A stretch of 64,000 nt of DNA. Origin: a phage. The DNA lies in the NCBI GenBank assembly GCA_012813795.1, contig GCA_012813795.1_4087.1; one strand, given 5' to 3'. This document shows, in pieces, positions 20,689 to 64,000 of this stretch; the stretch's first letter is position 1, and each line of letters starts with the position of its first letter. A program made the translations under genes and the position numbers. The notes under the pieces were generated by a model. That model ran no database searches, had not been told where the DNA came from, and saw only the letters and a program-made list of their open reading frames with translations.

Positions 20689-21231
20689 TTACCATTTCAG
20701 AAATTCGTTCACATCGAGATCATACTTCAATGAGTCAACCATATGCAAACCAATCAGAAACAGACAATATGAGGCTACAGAACTACCACGCCCTAAGCCC
20801 CAGAAGATGTTGTGCTCTTCCATATAATCTACCAACCATATCATACAACGCAATAGCTTTGTCATATTATATTGTTCGTATAAATCAATTTCGTATTCCA
20901 CACGCTGTTTTGCTTCAGGTGTGGAACACTTTTGTAAAAAGAATTCTCTTAGATTGATATTGTCATACATTGGATCATAACGCCATAACTCATGATTACT
21001 ATCATGGTCAATTGTATAATCCAACATACGTTGCTCTAGTCCAAATTTTTTACAGTTATCGTTAAACTTCAAACGCTCTTGTTCATCTATATCTTGTAAT
21101 TGTAAGTACTGAATATCTGAACCACAATTCATAGCATAAACTACAGCATTTAAATTACATTTAACATCACCATTGGGACTTATATATCTGTTTCCTTGAA
21201 CTTTCATTTGTCTTTTTACTATCCTCTTCAT
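20689..21231 (-). CDS. hypothetical protein with DnaE-like GxGRGS segment
   Basis: WGLGRGSSVASYCLFLIGLHMVD resembles Pol III alpha GPGRGSAAGSLVAY region; start uncertain. Confidence 0.4.
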   Translation of the reverse strand: MKRIVKRQMKVQGNRYISPNGDVKCNLNAVVYAMNCGSDIQYLQLQDIDEQERLKFNDNCKKFGLEQRMLDYTIDHDSNHELWRYDPMYDNINLREFFLQKCSTPEAKQRVEYEIDLYEQYNMTKLLRCMIWLVDYMEEHNIFWGLGRGSSVASYCLFLIGLHMVDSLKYDLDVNEFLKW

Positions 21232-33809: not shown

Positions 33810-39392
<5,583 letters not shown>

Positions 39393-43196: not shown

Positions 43197-43213
43197 AAGG
43201 CGGGACGCCTTTT
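43197..43213. terminator. hairpin aaggcg-gga-cgcctt flanked by A/T runs
   Basis: Downstream of gene 43212..43793. Confidence 0.4.
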
Positions 43214-43793
43214 AAGGTTTGTCCCACCCACGGTATACAAATTCTAAAGTATATCCTGATTCTGCAAAATCATTATTACGAACTGTGAAACTCATATTTT
43301 TAGTTTGTTCATCGTAACTTGGATTTTCGAATGTAATCGATATAATAGCATCTGGTCTGTTGGTATTGTTAAATTGGGTTAGTAGAGTGTTTCCACCAAT
43401 CGTTACAATTTGAATAGTTCCTGATTCAAGAATTGTATTACTGGTGTTGTAAGCAATGTAATCAACGAATACACGACTTTGACTTTGAATATAAATGTCA
43501 TACATCTCTACATCTTTAAGTAAATCATAAACGAATGGTCGATTTATAATTTTAGAAACAGTTTGCCACGGGGTAAATTCTGTGATGATTTCCACGTTTT
43601 CTTTACCAGAATTAGGGTCAGTTTCCCATGTTCTACCCGCTACAATACTAGCTGGGTCAGATGAAGAAGGTAAACCAACAAACATACGACCTACATCAGT
43701 ACTGAATGCTAATTGACCCTTTTCTAATGCATCTGGTAAATCACGCTGTTTGCCAGTTCTAATTTGCTGCAACGCAATCTGTTGTTGTGCCAT
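43212..43793 (-). CDS. hypothetical protein
   Basis: ORF track. Confidence 0.55.
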   Translation of the reverse strand: MAQQQIALQQIRTGKQRDLPDALEKGQLAFSTDVGRMFVGLPSSSDPASIVAGRTWETDPNSGKENVEIITEFTPWQTVSKIINRPFVYDLLKDVEMYDIYIQSQSRVFVDYIAYNTSNTILESGTIQIVTIGGNTLLTQFNNTNRPDAIISITFENPSYDEQTKNMSFTVRNNDFAESGYTLEFVYRGWDKP

Positions 43794-43821: not shown

Positions 43822-44382
43822 TTATTTAGCATTTTCTTTTACTTCAGCAATACGCTCGTTAACTAAGCGAGATACAACTGAACTATCAACCGCTGCAAGA
43901 ATTGCTTCTGGAACTTCAGCTTTTAGGTGTTTGATATATGCTGCTACAGTTTTTAGTTCTTTTGATTGTAGAGAAGTTTTGATGATATCTAGATCTTCTT
44001 TGGAAGCTTCGATACGCTCAATAACAACAACATCTTCTTCGGATTCAACAGATTCTTGTTGTTCTTCTACAATTTGTTTTACTTCTTCTAGTGCTTTTTC
44101 TTGATCTTCTGAATTTTCTACGTATTCTTCGATAACTTCAGGTTTAACATTACGAGATGCTTCATCTACACTAATATCTTCAAAAATCTTTTCTTTGATT
44201 ACTTCTACTGGCTTAGCACCACGAGCTTTGTAATCCTTTGCGTTTTCAATGATACGCTGTGGTAATGGTAATGCTTCGATTTCCTCAATGCTCATTGCCA
44301 TAACTTCATCGATTTCATAACCTTTACTACGTAGTGCTTTGATAATATATAAGTCTTGTTTCATTTGTTTATGCTGCTCCAT
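43822..44382 (-). CDS. hypothetical acidic protein
   Basis: Start set at MEQHKQ with GGAGAAA SD (track 44475 overlaps upstream gene by 107 nt). Confidence 0.45.
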   Translation of the reverse strand: MEQHKQMKQDLYIIKALRSKGYEIDEVMAMSIEEIEALPLPQRIIENAKDYKARGAKPVEVIKEKIFEDISVDEASRNVKPEVIEEYVENSEDQEKALEEVKQIVEEQQESVESEEDVVVIERIEASKEDLDIIKTSLQSKELKTVAAYIKHLKAEVPEAILAAVDSSVVSRLVNERIAEVKENAK

Positions 44383-45088
44383 TGGCTTCAATTTCTCCAC
44401 GTAAAATATAATATTGTTCCACACGACCAATCCACATATCAACTGCATCTTTAAAGTCTTGTCCTTCAATAACAAATTCTTGATATTGTAAATTTTGTGG
44501 ATCTTTTCTTACACAAATAAAAATCACACCACGCTCAATGTTAGTACCATGCATTTGATTATGTGCTAATGCATACGCGGCGATTTGCATACGATAATTT
44601 TCAATATGTTCCCATGTTTTGAGTTTTCGGGAGTTTTTATAATCCATTATCGTAGGTATACCATCATGAACACCAACTAAATCTGTTGTTCCTGCCCACA
44701 AACCTTCATAGAATAAAGGAACTTCTTGACCCCATACCTCGTTGATTCGAGGCCATGCTTCTGACTGGATTTTATCAGCCATTTTTCGTGCAAGAACTCG
44801 TATTGGCATTCCACCTTCATGGTCCGGTTTACCTTCCAAACGGAATTCTAAATTTTCATGCATGAAAGTACCAACAGTACAGGCTTCCAACGTTATCTCA
44901 TTTGCTTTTTCTTCTCCAACAAACTCACGCCATTTCTTCAAACCTTCATTATCTGAAGTGGCACTAAGTATTGTTGTTACTGACGGCAGATTACCCGTTG
45001 GAGTAGAATAAAGGCGACCTTCAGAGCCGCCTTCAATTCTTTTATAATCAACATAAGTATATCTGCTAACAATCGGTGGTGTGTACAT
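44369..45088 (-). CDS. putative PD-(D/E)xK nuclease (RecB/Cas4-like)
   Basis: TDLVGVHDGIPTIMDYK (D...D.K) followed by QIAAYALA (QxxxY). Confidence 0.5.
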   Translation of the reverse strand: MYTPPIVSRYTYVDYKRIEGGSEGRLYSTPTGNLPSVTTILSATSDNEGLKKWREFVGEEKANEITLEACTVGTFMHENLEFRLEGKPDHEGGMPIRVLARKMADKIQSEAWPRINEVWGQEVPLFYEGLWAGTTDLVGVHDGIPTIMDYKNSRKLKTWEHIENYRMQIAAYALAHNQMHGTNIERGVIFICVRKDPQNLQYQEFVIEGQDFKDAVDMWIGRVEQYYILRGEIEANGAA

Positions 45089-45136
45089 CCGTGTACTCCT
45101 AATTATAGCACTATATTTTTGTTTGTCTCAATTTTT

Positions 45137-45469
45137 TTAATCTTTAGTCACAGATGCAGCTTTAGTAGCCCAATCGGTGACCTGTTCTTCTGAATTTTCT
45201 TGTCCATCAGGTGATGGATTTGTGTCCCCATCAGCACCTGCAAATTTCACTATATCAGAATTAACATCTTGTACAAATGGCAATGTGTTAAGAATATCCA
45301 TCATCACATTGTAAGGTACGTCGATGTTAGTTCTTTTTTTAATTTCGGAAATTAAGGATTGCAAATTCACTTCTTCACGACCAGAAGATACCAGAGACAA
45401 TGCAATAGATGTGATCATGTTGCGAATATCTTTTGGTGGTGCATCTTCAGTTAGATCACTGAATTTCAT
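45137..45469 (-). CDS. hypothetical protein
   Basis: ORF track. Confidence 0.45.
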   Translation of the reverse strand: MKFSDLTEDAPPKDIRNMITSIALSLVSSGREEVNLQSLISEIKKRTNIDVPYNVMMDILNTLPFVQDVNSDIVKFAGADGDTNPSPDGQENSEEQVTDWATKAASVTKD

Positions 45470-45479
45470 AATTATATCC

Positions 45480-46109
45480 TTATTTCTTCACAACGCCCAA
45501 AACTTTTTTGATTTTGTGTTGGTTTTCAGTTAGCCAAGAATTCATTTCTGCTTTATTTGAGAAGTACTTAGTACCAATAGTACCGCGAATACTTTCCATC
45601 TCAACACCAATTTTTGTGAATTGTACAGATTCTTTCATTTCACGTTCGGTCGGGATTGGTTCTGAAATTAGGTCTTCTTCGAAATCTGCATCTGCACCCA
45701 TATCAAAAGATGGTTCAGAAGTTACATCAACATCAAACTCATCAGCACCCAAATCGGATACGTCTGGTGCATCAGTGATATCACCAGTTAGCTTTAGAGT
45801 TTCAGTACTGATCTTGTCCTTAACATCCATTAGTGTTGTTACTGCTTGTTGTAGTAAACCACTAACGCTGTTTTTAAAGTTTTCTGCTGCATCTAGACCT
45901 TGCTCAGCTTTGATACGGTCAAGTAGTGGGCCTAGTACGTCAACGCCCATGTTGTTGATAACTTCAGATTGACGTTGTAGCTTATCAACGATTTCACCTT
46001 TAACTGCCAAAACAATTTCTGCTTTTTCGATATTGGATTCGTTGAGTTTAATAAAAGTCATTGCTTCAGCCTTAGAAGAAGACTCCATTAGTTTTTTGTA
46101 ATTTGACAT
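45480..46109 (-). CDS. hypothetical acidic protein
   Basis: ORF track. Confidence 0.5.
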   Translation of the reverse strand: MSNYKKLMESSSKAEAMTFIKLNESNIEKAEIVLAVKGEIVDKLQRQSEVINNMGVDVLGPLLDRIKAEQGLDAAENFKNSVSGLLQQAVTTLMDVKDKISTETLKLTGDITDAPDVSDLGADEFDVDVTSEPSFDMGADADFEEDLISEPIPTEREMKESVQFTKIGVEMESIRGTIGTKYFSNKAEMNSWLTENQHKIKKVLGVVKK

Positions 46110-46142
46110 TTGTATTTCCTTATAAAAATATCCTAAATTTAT

Positions 46143-46832
46143 TTACTTGATATAACCTTCACTCTTGAGGAAGTTCATAACACGTTCTTTGAGTTTTAAT
46201 GCTTCTGCTTTCTTTTCAGCAATTAGTACGTCTAGATCTTTAGCTTCATCGTACTTAGACTCATTCAATACTTGTTGTCTCTTCTTTGCAGCATTAAGTG
46301 CTTCGTTCATCACATGAGTGAATTGCATCCCAGAGCTAATGATACCTAAAATTTTAGCATCAGTCAATACTCGACCTTCATTTAATAAGTTAACTAAAGT
46401 AAGTGCAGCTTCGTACATCATGATATTATTCATTAGTATTTGTGAGCTATGATTACTTTTGATACTATAGGTTTTTGTATTTTTAGTTCCTGGAACTTTC
46501 TCTTCTACTAAACACCAGTTGGTTTTTGGTTTAGTACTGGCACTCGGTGCGTATTGTGGTGTGGACGCTGGATGCCCCATAATGTGTTCATTGTAAGGGC
46601 TATTATATGTTGTTACATGAGGATGTTCTTGGTGTACCTGTTGTACTGGTTCACCGTAATTCATACCAGCCTCATTTAATGAGGTCAAAATATCAGTCAT
46701 TGCCCCAATATCACCACCAGTATTATAATGTGCACCAGATGATGCAGACACATTACCAGACTCGATATCATTCAAACCACTTAGTAAGTTAGTCATCATG
46801 TCAACCGATTTTTGGTCATATTCGTAATTCAT
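46143..46832 (-). CDS. hypothetical protein
   Basis: ORF track. Confidence 0.5.
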   Translation of the reverse strand: MNYEYDQKSVDMMTNLLSGLNDIESGNVSASSGAHYNTGGDIGAMTDILTSLNEAGMNYGEPVQQVHQEHPHVTTYNSPYNEHIMGHPASTPQYAPSASTKPKTNWCLVEEKVPGTKNTKTYSIKSNHSSQILMNNIMMYEAALTLVNLLNEGRVLTDAKILGIISSGMQFTHVMNEALNAAKKRQQVLNESKYDEAKDLDVLIAEKKAEALKLKERVMNFLKSEGYIK

Positions 46833-47071
46833 TTCTTACTCCTTATTGACACATATACTTCATCACCATCATCGTTCTGTTCCTTATTTAGAACACCACG
46901 AGATACAAGTTTTTCAGCCAATTCTTCATAGTATTCATTGACATTTTTAACAGGCACAGTACCGCGTGCCTTTATTTTTTGTAATAACTTATATTCTTCG
47001 TTGGAAACCATAGTATTGTGTCCGTGTAAATTCGGAACAGTACGCATTATAGTCCTCTCATTCTCGAACAA
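46829..47071 (-). CDS. small hypothetical protein
   Basis: ORF track. Confidence 0.4.
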   Translation of the reverse strand: MFENERTIMRTVPNLHGHNTMVSNEEYKLLQKIKARGTVPVKNVNEYYEELAEKLVSRGVLNKEQNDDGDEVYVSIRSKK

Positions 47072-48003
47072 GCATCAATAATTTGGTTAATAATATCATC
47101 ATTATCCGATTGAGCACTATTACCCATTTGACTTTCTTCACCAGAAAGGTCTTCTTCTTTCTCAATATCATTGATTGCATGAATCATCTCACCCATACCA
47201 GGCTGATGATTGGTCAATGGTGATTCACTTGGTTCATCGGTTGAAAGACCTGCATTATCAGGGGGAGCCATCAATTCATCATTGATTTCATTGGGGTCTT
47301 TTTCATCAGAAACACGGGTTTCTTGATCTTCAGTAACTTTTTGATTTTGCATATCAACCGGAGTTACATCATCAAGTGAAAATACATTTAATTCATTTGG
47401 TTTATTACCATTTTTTGTAATAACCAAAGATTGGTCTGGGGTTGCACCAATATCAACACCAATGACTGGCTCAACAGCATCAGTTCCAGATTGTGACCCA
47501 GGAACAGTAACTTGCATATTATTAGCGTTCTTTTGTAATTCCGCTTGTTTAAGTTTTGCTTGTGTTTGTGGATTCATTTGTTGTGTATTATTGTTCATAT
47601 TCACGGCTTGATTTGATTTTAGCTGTGAAGTGATATCTTCAAAAACCAAAGCTTTAAGTTCTTGAATACTAAGACTGGATACATCACAGTAGGTGTTCAT
47701 TGAACGATAATGTTCGGTTAATTCTTTCGCACTCATTGAGTCAACTTTAGAACACAATTCAGATGATTCATTGATGTGTTTCATAAAATTGGTTGGGCTA
47801 AAATAATTATAACTCTCACTCATATGTGCTTTATATTTTTGTAGCAATTGCATAATTGTACGGTTGTCTGAATTATCCATTGCACCATTAAGAGCAACGA
47901 AATCACCTGCATCCATATTATCAATAATAATTGCCACATCGATGTTCATTCCATGAGCATCAGCAAACTTCTGTAGTTCGCTTGCGGTTTGTTGCATGTC
48001 CAT
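47047..48003 (-). CDS. low-complexity N/Q/D/E-rich hypothetical protein
   Basis: ORF track; biased composition. Confidence 0.5.
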   Translation of the reverse strand: MDMQQTASELQKFADAHGMNIDVAIIIDNMDAGDFVALNGAMDNSDNRTIMQLLQKYKAHMSESYNYFSPTNFMKHINESSELCSKVDSMSAKELTEHYRSMNTYCDVSSLSIQELKALVFEDITSQLKSNQAVNMNNNTQQMNPQTQAKLKQAELQKNANNMQVTVPGSQSGTDAVEPVIGVDIGATPDQSLVITKNGNKPNELNVFSLDDVTPVDMQNQKVTEDQETRVSDEKDPNEINDELMAPPDNAGLSTDEPSESPLTNHQPGMGEMIHAINDIEKEEDLSGEESQMGNSAQSDNDDIINQIIDACSRMRGL

Positions 48004-48056
48004 ATATTCTCCAAAATAAAAAAGACCTTAGTCTTGCTTTATGATATTTATCACAA

Positions 48057-48449
48057 TTAAGAAAAGGTCTGTTTACTGATGCTAATATTACGAGTACAAT
48101 TCGTTGTGATAAATTTTGTAATGCGGTTATTATTAACCACTGTAGGTAGTACTAATGGTATTCCATTTAATCTCAAATTCACATCAACTGGTAATGCAAA
48201 TTTGAAAGTACTAACAATACATTTTCCCCATGACGATGGTAAGCTGTAAAATTCAGAATTGTTTCCTTTGGTCAAATCAACTTCATCTCTAACAACACTT
48301 ACCATCATTGGATAATCATGCACCATAATTGCTTCAAGTAATCGTGACAAATTCATAGCACCTGTGAATTTAGAATCGATTATTGTTGGAGTACTACCAT
48401 CACCAATATCTACAACGGTATTAATAGTGTAGAATGTATATGGTTTCAT
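48057..48449 (-). CDS. hypothetical protein
   Basis: ORF track. Confidence 0.5.
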   Translation of the reverse strand: MKPYTFYTINTVVDIGDGSTPTIIDSKFTGAMNLSRLLEAIMVHDYPMMVSVVRDEVDLTKGNNSEFYSLPSSWGKCIVSTFKFALPVDVNLRLNGIPLVLPTVVNNNRITKFITTNCTRNISISKQTFS

Positions 48450-48631
48450 TCCTTATCCTTTTTAATTTTATATTCTTTATACCCAAAGAAATTGGTTGGA
48501 GGAATACGTTTGAGTAATGGATAATTTAATCCAGTACTGATTGATGCAACTGCCCCTGCCGAGGTAGCACCTGCTGAAGCATTTTCTTTTAATTTCTTTT
48601 TCATATCAATTACCTTTATTACGTTTTTCAT
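48446..48631 (-). CDS. small hypothetical protein
   Basis: ORF track. Confidence 0.3.
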   Translation of the reverse strand: MKNVIKVIDMKKKLKENASAGATSAGAVASISTGLNYPLLKRIPPTNFFGYKEYKIKKDKE

Positions 48632-48878
48632 CCAGTGCTATATTTTCCAACCCCTTCTGAAACTTTTTGTAATCTCGGTTCTTGATACTCAAAAATAATC
48701 GTTTCTTTAAATCTTCAGCATCAATACTATTAAACTCATTATCTATACTCTCCAATAAATGAATTACAGAATTTATGGCATGGTCGGCCCTATTACCAAA
48801 ACTCTGCAATGTATCCTTCTCTGGAGTATAATTTACTATACTATCAAGTAGATTCTTTTTACTGGATTCATTAGCCAT
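48606..48878 (-). CDS. small hypothetical protein
   Basis: ORF track. Confidence 0.4.
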   Translation of the reverse strand: MANESSKKNLLDSIVNYTPEKDTLQSFGNRADHAINSVIHLLESIDNEFNSIDAEDLKKRLFLSIKNRDYKKFQKGLENIALDEKRNKGN

Positions 48879-57873: not shown

Positions 57874-58692
57874 TTAGTTAGTACGACTACTATACTCGTA
57901 CTCAAATGTATATACTAAATCTTTATCACAGTTTGGATTACTCGTGTCTAGGATATCACTATTAGTAATCATCCATTCAATGTAATTCAATGGTACAGTA
58001 CTCATTGGTTCGCCTTTATGCTTACCAAATGGCATAAATTGATAACACATTGGTGTATTGCAGAATGTGACAATTTGTTCACCAATATCCTGTTCTGGAT
58101 CAATATGACCACGTTCAATAGCAACTTCAATAAGTTTAATTAGAACCTGATAGCACATGAATACATCATCTTTTGCAGCATGAGCATTAACAGGACGATG
58201 TACATCACGATAACATCCAAATTTATACCACAAATAACTTAGTGTTAGATTTTTGAATTCTACATCTTCAGCAAACATTTTCTTAGCAAAACGAAGGGTA
58301 CAAATCCATTTATCCTCATCAAGAAGATACTGTGAAATTGAGTTACGATATTTATATTCATTATCAACCATCATTCTACGGTCAAATTGTACATTGTGAC
58401 CAACATAATATTCTCTGCACCCCATTAGTGCATCAATATTTTCGAGATCATCTTTATACCCAATACAATTTGCAACATCTTCAGTACTGATAAAATGCAC
58501 TGCCGACGCTTCAGGTGGAATGTCTTTCAATGGTTTATATCGCAATGTATAGTTATCAACTGTGTCAATATTTTCATGTGCATTTTGAGGATAAGAAATA
58601 CTAAATTCAATAATATCATCATCACTCTCAACACCAGTGGTTTCAGTGTCGAGTACTGAAACTTGTTTTAGAAAATCATCTATTTTAGACAT
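57874..58692 (-). CDS. DnaQ-like DEDDh 3'-5' exonuclease
   Basis: Exo I LDTETTG, Exo II HNVQFD, Exo III HAAKDDV. Confidence 0.7.
   Translation of the reverse strand: MSKIDDFLKQVSVLDTETTGVESDDDIIEFSISYPQNAHENIDTVDNYTLRYKPLKDIPPEASAVHFISTEDVANCIGYKDDLENIDALMGCREYYVGHNVQFDRRMMVDNEYKYRNSISQYLLDEDKWICTLRFAKKMFAEDVEFKNLTLSYLWYKFGCYRDVHRPVNAHAAKDDVFMCYQVLIKLIEVAIERGHIDPEQDIGEQIVTFCNTPMCYQFMPFGKHKGEPMSTVPLNYIEWMITNSDILDTSNPNCDKDLVYTFEYEYSSRTN

Positions 58693-60394: not shown

Positions 60395-64000
<3,606 letters not shown>

Follow-up and report, generated by a model that had tools for sequence, protein, structure and literature searches.

What kind of nuclease is encoded at positions 44369..45088 of a 64,000-nucleotide stretch of phage DNA (contig GCA_012813795.1_4087.1 of NCBI GenBank assembly GCA_012813795.1; hereafter, the window)? 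A first-pass annotation, made from the letters alone, had proposed here an open reading frame (ORF) for a "RecB/Cas4-like" PD-(D/E)xK nuclease whose motifs are arranged as in RecB-family and lambda-exonuclease-like enzymes. The ORF is present, but on the minus strand, where it runs intact from ATG to TAA; the plus-strand translation of the same interval is riddled with stops. Both strings cited in support of the proposal occur in the product, TDLVGVHDGIPTIMDYK at amino acids (aa) 135-151 (44636..44686) and QIAAYALA at aa 168-175 (44564..44587). We conclude that this product very probably belongs to the MGME1-like branch of RecB-type PD-(D/E)XK nucleases, as a small DNA exonuclease that would act on its own with Mg2+ or Mn2+ and would most likely trim the tails arising in replication and recombination. 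Its closest characterised relative is MGME1, a human mitochondrial DNA-end-trimming enzyme.

44369..45088, minus strand: coding sequence of the MGME1-like RecB-type PD-(D/E)XK exonuclease; 239 aa, isoelectric point (pI) 5.25, 27.4 kDa.

The 10 kb surrounding the ORF are 99.3% identical to Escherichia phage A4 (ON286972.1, Asteriusvirus, 355.5 kb), and identity over the whole window is about 99%. The ORF product matches A4_55 of that phage at 100% identity (hereafter, the A4 protein), and A4_55 carries the label "exonuclease." Relatives at 80-95% identity are encoded by about 70 jumbo phages of Escherichia, Salmonella, Klebsiella, Yersinia, Erwinia, Pectobacterium, and Xanthomonas, under labels that differ from record to record ("exonuclease," "PD-(D/E)XK nuclease superfamily protein," "restriction endonuclease type II like-protein," "CRISPR/Cas system-associated protein Cas4," and "hypothetical protein"). 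The Asteriusvirus genome papers contain nothing specific on the gene. Because its source genome already has it annotated as an exonuclease, and because the phage family around it is large and known, finding it is ordinary, and as an already known, correctly annotated, common phage exonuclease it has little importance for this window.

The motif pattern on which the proposal was founded does not discriminate by itself. The loose arrangement D..(D/E)xK..QxxxY occurs in 4 of the 82 window ORFs that are 100 aa or longer; shuffled proteins would give 3.4, so that the count is at chance level. The remaining three ORFs with the pattern, all on the minus strand and starting MRIVMKYYKIRI (144 aa), MMADKVTHYAVD (233 aa), and MNKPMILLVGML (184 aa), are probably coincidental, because the count equals the chance expectation. 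The fuller set of five RecB-type motifs in order (H..hE / E / D / (D/E)xK / QxxxY) is found in the nuclease as the sole window ORF, with 0.03 expected, its residues being H77 (motif Ia), E122 (I), D136 (II), D149-x-K151 (III), and Q168-xxx-Y172 (IV). Motif IV, in the form QhxxY, is together with the motif Ia histidine specific to RecB-type nucleases (PMC6237815). A search with PD-(D/E)xK profiles, which the first-pass annotation had suggested as a check, bears out the nuclease call: Pfam PDDEXK_1 (PF12705) matches residues 100-202 with 24.6 bits against a gathering cut-off of 22 (E 2.8e-5), and the PHROG 298 "exonuclease" profile matches residues 2-232 at its positions 33-263 of 293 (E 3e-62). 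Taken with the structural evidence given below, these profiles place the nuclease match well beyond chance.

Conservation of the motif residues was examined at two depths. Across 44 homologues with 45% identity or more, the columns without any variation include W53, G73, H77, L80, E81, E122, D136, D149, K151, Q168, and Y172. An exhaustive profile search over 1.84 billion cluster representatives retrieved 7615 relatives at E ≤ 0.001, from which a distant set of 130 sequences comprises the query and 129 near-full-length representatives at 30-47% identity to it. In this distant set H77, E122, and D136 are each conserved in 130/130 sequences, D149 and K151 each in 129/130, W53 in 127/130, Q168 in 125/130, and Y172 in 123/130. 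The first-pass annotation had made its reading depend on such conservation in homologues; the motif residues are conserved, and therefore the nuclease interpretation stands.

Within the RecB-like clan, the evidence supports membership of the MGME1-like family rather than of the Cas4, lambda exonuclease, or YqaJ families. A profile built from the 44 homologues and searched against the PDB found human MGME1 at E 4e-16 over residues 32-232, with the runner-up at 0.026, and hhalign paired the two with a probability of 97.8% (E 7.5e-13). An AlphaFold2 model predicted from the alignment (predicted local distance difference test 94.6, predicted template modelling score 0.89) was compared with the PDB by Foldseek, and MGME1 occupied ranks 1-9 (E 5.9e-11, template modelling scores 0.69/0.73), followed by the putative exonuclease 3L0A (6e-6), RecE (3e-4), and Cas4-family proteins (about 1e-3). 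The relationship is reciprocal: a scan of PHROGs with the human MGME1 nuclease domain found PHROG 298 at E 2.3e-23 and the second family at 1.9e-4, and in Pfam that domain matches PDDEXK_1 alone, as the phage protein does. Among solved structures, MGME1 is thus clearly ahead of all others as a relative, in sequence as well as in fold. It was reached by the family profile only, as a single-sequence phmmer search of the PDB gave nothing meaningful (the top match was Rab GDI, E 0.56). In direct phmmer comparisons with human MGME1, scores of 45-58 bits are reached by family members from SAR11, from cyanophages, and from some marine metagenomes.

The same comparisons bear on the lambda exonuclease and Cas4 affinities named by the first-pass annotation. 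A lambda exonuclease, RecE, or YqaJ type of enzyme would resect double-stranded DNA ends processively in the 5'-3' direction as a ring-shaped oligomer, in partnership with a single-strand annealing protein. Pfam YqaJ (PF09588) gives no match at E ≤ 1, RecE and lambda exonuclease are clearly more distant relatives than MGME1, the YqaJ/lambda exonuclease type much more so in structure, and no annealase gene adjoins in phage A4, which uses UvsX and UvsY. With neither a profile match nor an adjacent annealing protein, the A4 protein does not group with the YqaJ/lambda exonuclease enzymes, and since its nearest homologue, MGME1, prefers single-stranded DNA (ssDNA), a lambda-exonuclease-type function is unlikely. 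The Cas4 affinity, which appears also as the label of the homologue in Xanthomonas phage XbC2, would mean a phage-borne Cas4 that serves as a decoy or acts on the acquisition of CRISPR spacers. The NCBIfam Cas4 equivalog model TIGR00372 scores 27.5 bits against a cut-off of 65. According to PMC4176176, Cas4 needs four conserved cysteines for its iron-sulfur cluster; the only cysteines of the A4 protein are C70 and C192, neither in a conserved column. Without the four-cysteine cluster and with a score this far below the cut-off, Cas4 membership is rejected, and we regard a Cas4 role as scarcely credible.

Solved MGME1-DNA complexes allow an active-site model for the phage enzyme that is concrete and testable. 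The mutational and structural roles of the MGME1 catalytic residues are documented (PMC6237815), and the corresponding segments of the phage gene are as follows.

44966..44986, minus strand: PSVTTIL box, aa 35-41, a family signature that aligns with PSVTRVL of human MGME1.
44837..44947, minus strand: two helices, aa 48-57 and 59-84, the predicted equivalent of the MGME1 "helical arch" (from the predicted model and the alignment register).
44723..44725, minus strand: motif I, E122, aligned with MGME1 Glu223, a second-shell ligand of metal B in MGME1.
44636..44686, minus strand: motifs II and III, TDLVGVHDGIPTIMDYK; D136 aligns with Asp238, D149 with Asp251, and K151 with Lys253.
44618..44632, minus strand: SRKLK loop past motif III; K155 and K157 align with MGME1 Lys257 and Lys259.
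44564..44587, minus strand: motif IV, QhxxY (Q168, Y172), the RecB-type hallmark, which aligns with QVVAY of human MGME1.

In the signature box, S36, V37, T38, T39, I40, and L41 are invariant in the 44 homologues and conserved in 114-123/130 sequences of the distant set. The arch of MGME1 consists of helices alpha2 (143-160) and alpha3 (162-187), beneath which the ssDNA lies (PMC6237815). In the predicted model, helices 48-57 and 59-84 map to MGME1 147-156 and 162-187, so that an arch of this type appears to be present. Within the segment lie W53, the counterpart of the pin residue Trp152, and motif Ia (GTFMHENLE), whose H77 is the counterpart of His180. In the basic loop, position 157 is K or R in 122/130 and position 155 in 100/130 sequences of the distant set.

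The roles of these residues can be proposed by analogy. In MGME1, metal A is bound by His180 (motif Ia), Asp238 (II), Asp251 (III), and the carbonyl of Trp252, while metal B is bound by Asp238 and, via a water molecule, by Glu223 (I); Lys253 orients the nucleophilic water (PMC6237815). By these assignments D136 and D149 would be metal ligands and K151 the catalytic lysine: metal A would be held by H77, D136, D149, and the backbone carbonyl of Y150, metal B by D136 with E122 acting through water, and the attacking water would be oriented by K151. MGME1 contacts the DNA backbone through Lys257 and Lys259, and its pin at the duplex junction is formed by Trp152 and Phe173 (PMC6237815). In the phage enzyme, Q168 and Y172 of motif IV and the basic loop K155/K157 would grip the backbone, W53 would sit at the single-strand/duplex junction, and the helices of aa 48-84 would arch over the active site and admit free ssDNA ends only. 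The chemistry and specificity would then be those of a two-metal, end-threading ssDNA exonuclease. Typical of the MGME1 family is a metal-dependent exonuclease activity that needs free ends, favours ssDNA, and runs with both polarities in vitro. In the infected cell, such an enzyme would most likely trim the ssDNA tails and flaps that arise as the phage replicates and recombines its DNA with T4-type machinery, and might additionally help to finish the degradation of linear or host DNA. From homology, fold, catalytic-residue conservation, and genomic context we infer its metal dependence, ssDNA-end specificity, polarity, and biological role.

The genomic setting in phage A4 is consistent with such a role. 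The genes of the region all lie on the minus strand of the window, in the order primase, DnaB-like helicase, seven small lineage-specific genes, nuclease, A4_56, A4_57 (virion protein), nrdA, and nrdB. They form part of a DNA-metabolism block of about 50 kb that encodes a gp32-like single-stranded DNA-binding protein, UvsX, UvsY, a UvsW-like helicase, the primase and DnaB-like helicase, ribonucleotide reductase, a DEDD exonuclease, dihydrofolate reductase, RNase HI, a Dda/PIF1-like helicase, topoisomerase II, and a clamp loader. Just beyond the window, phage A4 encodes a FEN-type 5'-3' exonuclease (A4_27, PF02739), a DNA polymerase of family B size, gp46/47-like proteins, and endonuclease VII.

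The family is widespread in other phages: 987 phage records contain a homologue by tblastn. Most of these are cyanomyoviruses, Ackermannviridae, or phages of Vibrio, Klebsiella, Rhizobium, Dickeya, and Stenotrophomonas, and they include myoviruses of Synechococcus and Prochlorococcus as well as Kuttervirus and Limestonevirus. In two Ackermannviridae the homologue lies between UvsY and a UvsW-type helicase, beside clamp and clamp-loader genes. The S-PM2 gene is flanked by PhoH and gp33/gp32. That of the cyanosiphovirus S-CBS4 has a Sak-like annealase about 0.8 kb away, with dCTP deaminase and thymidylate synthase nearby. Such settings speak for a part in replication or recombination, and a few are also compatible with nucleotide salvage. 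A stand-in role for a missing FEN or T4 RNase H at Okazaki flaps was considered as well and is rejected, as A4 has A4_27 and RNase HI and S-PM2 also encodes rnh. As a separate observation, the slot between UvsY and the UvsW-like helicase is filled in A4 by a DEDD (RNase_T family) exonuclease (57874..58692, minus strand) and in the Ackermannviridae by the MGME1-like nuclease (L006:4890-5636 and L009:3887-4618); non-homologous exonucleases may share one recombination-module slot.

The family also has 233 relatives in bacterial and archaeal genomes, one representative per species having been scanned, and many Pelagibacteraceae (SAR11) and SAR86 genomes carry the gene, the largest of the contigs measuring 1.26 Mb. 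The SAR11 order hisG-rmuC-X-sbcB, where X is the MGME1-like gene and sbcB encodes exonuclease I, recurs at 39 loci whose flanking proteins are down to about 60-85% identity (for example, L080:3941-4627 on a 966-kb Pelagibacteraceae contig, with 38 further loci among L035-L094). In SAR86 the gene is placed among metabolic genes (for example, L038:3998-4687 on a 1.19-Mb contig). With RmuC and exonuclease I encoded next to it, the SAR11 gene again looks like one for the processing of ssDNA ends during recombination or repair.

The bacterial loci also bear on the labels in the records of phages CBB and pEa_SNUABM_50, by which the protein would resemble a type II restriction endonuclease or an anti-defence nuclease, that is, a sequence- or structure-specific endonuclease directed against host or competitor DNA. 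That name is used in some records, and PD-(D/E)XK is a common restriction-enzyme fold, but the label mirrors the generic fold only. Motifs Ia and IV and the predicted arch are features of RecB-type exonucleases and not of restriction enzymes, no methyltransferase gene adjoins, and in SAR11 and SAR86 the family is syntenic in a housekeeping context. Given the RecB-type motifs and the lack of an adjacent methyltransferase, this assignment is rejected, and we consider an endonuclease of this kind highly improbable. "MGME1-like" is the best-supported name for the protein, and the Cas4 and restriction-enzyme labels are misleading.

Several observations weigh against an MGME1-like role in trimming tails. 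First, the A4 protein and human MGME1 share 22% pairwise identity, and because this similarity is low, substrate preference could differ from that of MGME1. Second, phmmer with the MGME1 domain alone retrieved SAR11, cyanophage, and metagenomic members and not the A4 protein, which marks the clade of the jumbo phages as a divergent branch within the family. Third, the second pin residue of MGME1, Phe173, aligns with Ala69, and the base-stacking Phe266 aligns with Glu163; both phenylalanines are features of the human enzyme (PMC6237815) and are not taken here as defining the family. Fourth, since FEN-type, RNase HI, DEDD, and gp46/47-like proteins are also encoded, the enzyme is not the sole candidate for flap removal or end resection in A4 and has no evident unique role. 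Fifth, the homologues in Agrobacterium phage OLIVR5 and phage 023Pt_psg01 have uninformative neighbours. Finally, a literature search found no biochemical data for any phage member. Set against the profile, fold, and active-site evidence, these points leave the MGME1-like exonuclease very probable.

How the gene is expressed, and with what it may act, is suggested by its immediate surroundings, in which three further features were recognized.

45102..45131, minus strand: candidate sigma-70-like promoter with extended -10, TTGAGA-N18-TG-n-TATAAT, 11/12 matches, within the 48 nt that immediately precede the nuclease gene.
45096..45100, minus strand: Shine-Dalgarno sequence AGGAG, 7 nt ahead of the ATG and invariant in a five-phage alignment.
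43822..44382, minus strand: A4_56, downstream neighbour of the nuclease gene; 186 aa, pI 4.66, 24% D+E, PHROG 15452, no Pfam match.

The promoter candidate is the top-scoring site in a scan of 5.5 kb whose total site count is at chance level. The spacer is laid out as TTGAGA-N18-TGCTATAAT, then AGGAG, then ATG; TGCTATAAT and AGGAG are invariant in phages 121Q, vB_Ec-M-J, CBB, and XbC2, and the neighbouring intergenic sequence has diverged. Such invariance across two phage genera suggests, short of proof, transcription from the putative promoter by host RNA polymerase. At the other end of the gene, the start of A4_56 overlaps the final 14 nt of the nuclease gene, and because its ATG lies within them, translational coupling of the two is possible. 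The pairing is kept in Asteriusvirus and Mimasvirus, and A4_56 may be a translationally coupled partner or regulator of the nuclease.

The same surroundings raise the possibility that the enzyme, with unchanged chemistry, mainly serves nucleotide salvage by degrading host or linear DNA to mononucleotides for phage nucleotide metabolism. The nuclease gene lies on the same strand as nrdA/nrdB, two genes upstream, with no terminator-like site between them on that strand, and the order nuclease-nrdA is kept in Asteriusvirus and Mimasvirus; yet A4_56 and A4_57 intervene before nrdA. The conserved host-type extended -10 would fit early expression by unmodified host RNA polymerase. The S-PM2 homologue is near thymidylate synthase and PhoH and that of S-CBS4 near dCTP deaminase and thymidylate synthase, whereas the neighbours in Ackermannviridae and SAR11 are recombination and repair genes and not genes of nucleotide metabolism. 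A parallel exists in the involvement of MGME1 in the degradation of linear mitochondrial DNA, as outlined in PMC5928156 and PMC6584726; intact duplex host DNA, however, would be beyond the reach of an ssDNA-end-specific enzyme alone. On balance we consider salvage as the principal function rather improbable, and prefer the trimming of replication and recombination tails.

The genes around the nuclease also account for a further statement of the first-pass annotation, that it sits among unassigned acidic proteins. The neighbours are acidic (pI 4.66 for A4_56, 4.31 for A4_54, 4.59 for A4_53, 4.25 for A4_50, and 4.56 for A4_57), and none of the five has a Pfam match; public records call most of them virion structural proteins. 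A scan of the acidic neighbours for partner functions gave lineage-specific "virion structural protein" PHROGs only. Small, mostly acidic genes so labelled extend over 45137..48878 and 43212..43793 (minus strand), within the replication module and between the DnaB-like helicase and ribonucleotide reductase, and the gene order of two virion proteins, nuclease, acidic protein, virion protein, and nrdA is kept in 121Q, vB_Ec-M-J, CBB, and XbC2. For the related phage phAPEC6, mass spectrometry is reported to have detected 62 virion proteins, whose genes are scattered over the genome, and the phage is reported to possess a capsid inner body. That mass-spectrometry set is a plausible source of the "structural protein" labels.

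Further observations concern other parts of the window. Genes for dihydrofolate reductase, RNase HI (PF00075, 140 aa), and a Dda/PIF1-like SF1 helicase are tightly packed and overlapping at 33810..36099 (minus strand). The mitochondrial DNA-maintenance set includes RNASEH1, PIF1, MGME1, and Twinkle, and the phage RNase HI, Dda/PIF1-like helicase, MGME1-like nuclease, and DnaB-family helicase bear a loose resemblance to it. At 20689..21207 (minus strand), a 172-aa ORF bears the label "DNA polymerase III alpha subunit," but its match to the NTPase-domain profile PF07733 (E 7.6e-10) covers only some 80 positions; the gene is isolated and fragment-sized, and the phage has its own DNA polymerase of about 1000 aa. 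The large terminase is annotated as two separate coding sequences, A4_29 and A4_30, about 275 bp apart (230273..232584 of the A4 record; L004:48774-50000; about 62967..64000 of the window), which suggests a split gene or an interruption of the intron or intein type.

The relationship to MGME1 has been noticed already by automated pipelines: many metagenomic members bear the JGI name "genome maintenance exonuclease 1," and one BFVD phage protein carries a name taken from the MGME1 structure. It is thus visible in databases though unpublished, as a literature search found no paper tying MGME1 to phage or bacterial homologues. The MGME1 homology and the core-like presence of the family gene in SAR11 and SAR86 are the one mildly novel side of the finding. 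Homology with MGME1 is established by the comparisons above, and the direction of descent and any functional equivalence are proposals that may be entertained. Tentatively, the phage, SAR11, and SAR86 family might represent the prokaryotic or viral stock ancestral to animal mitochondrial MGME1, with the phage enzyme serving a T4-type replisome in an equivalent way; we regard this as possible though doubtful. If it were true, the phage enzyme would remove flaps and linear DNA for that replisome, much as MGME1 works for Pol gamma and Twinkle. The SAR11 and SAR86 chromosomal copies bear on whether mitochondrial MGME1 is of alphaproteobacterial or phage origin, and if the evolutionary link were worked out, abundant and easily expressed phage or bacterial homologues could serve as models of the human disease enzyme.

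Comparison with known systems places the A4 protein most directly in PHROG 298, the family that includes T4-like gene cluster 325 of cyanomyoviruses and the "putative exonuclease" of Ackermannviridae, of which it is a full-length member. PHROG 298 genes typically lie within replication or recombination modules. The jumbo clade (Asteriusvirus, Mimasvirus, and relatives) differs in being 28-40% identical to the other phage groups and in having its own conserved neighbourhood, between virion-protein genes and ribonucleotide reductase. The chromosomal gene of SAR11 and SAR86 belongs to the same family, with 35-41% full-length identity to the A4 protein, but is cellular and not phage-borne, and its copies outscore the A4 protein against human MGME1. 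Cas4 proteins (TIGR00372; for example, SSO0001, Pcal_0546, and type I-C Cas4) differ also in setting, as the phage gene has no CRISPR context. Unlike MGME1, the phage protein lacks a mitochondrial targeting sequence and the N-terminal extension of about 100 residues; its alignment starts at residue 32-34, corresponding to MGME1 128-130, and a missing extension is expected for a non-eukaryotic homologue. Its C-terminal tail is likewise unlike that of MGME1. Finally, MGME1 acts with Pol gamma and Twinkle, whereas the phage protein is encoded beside a T4-type replisome.

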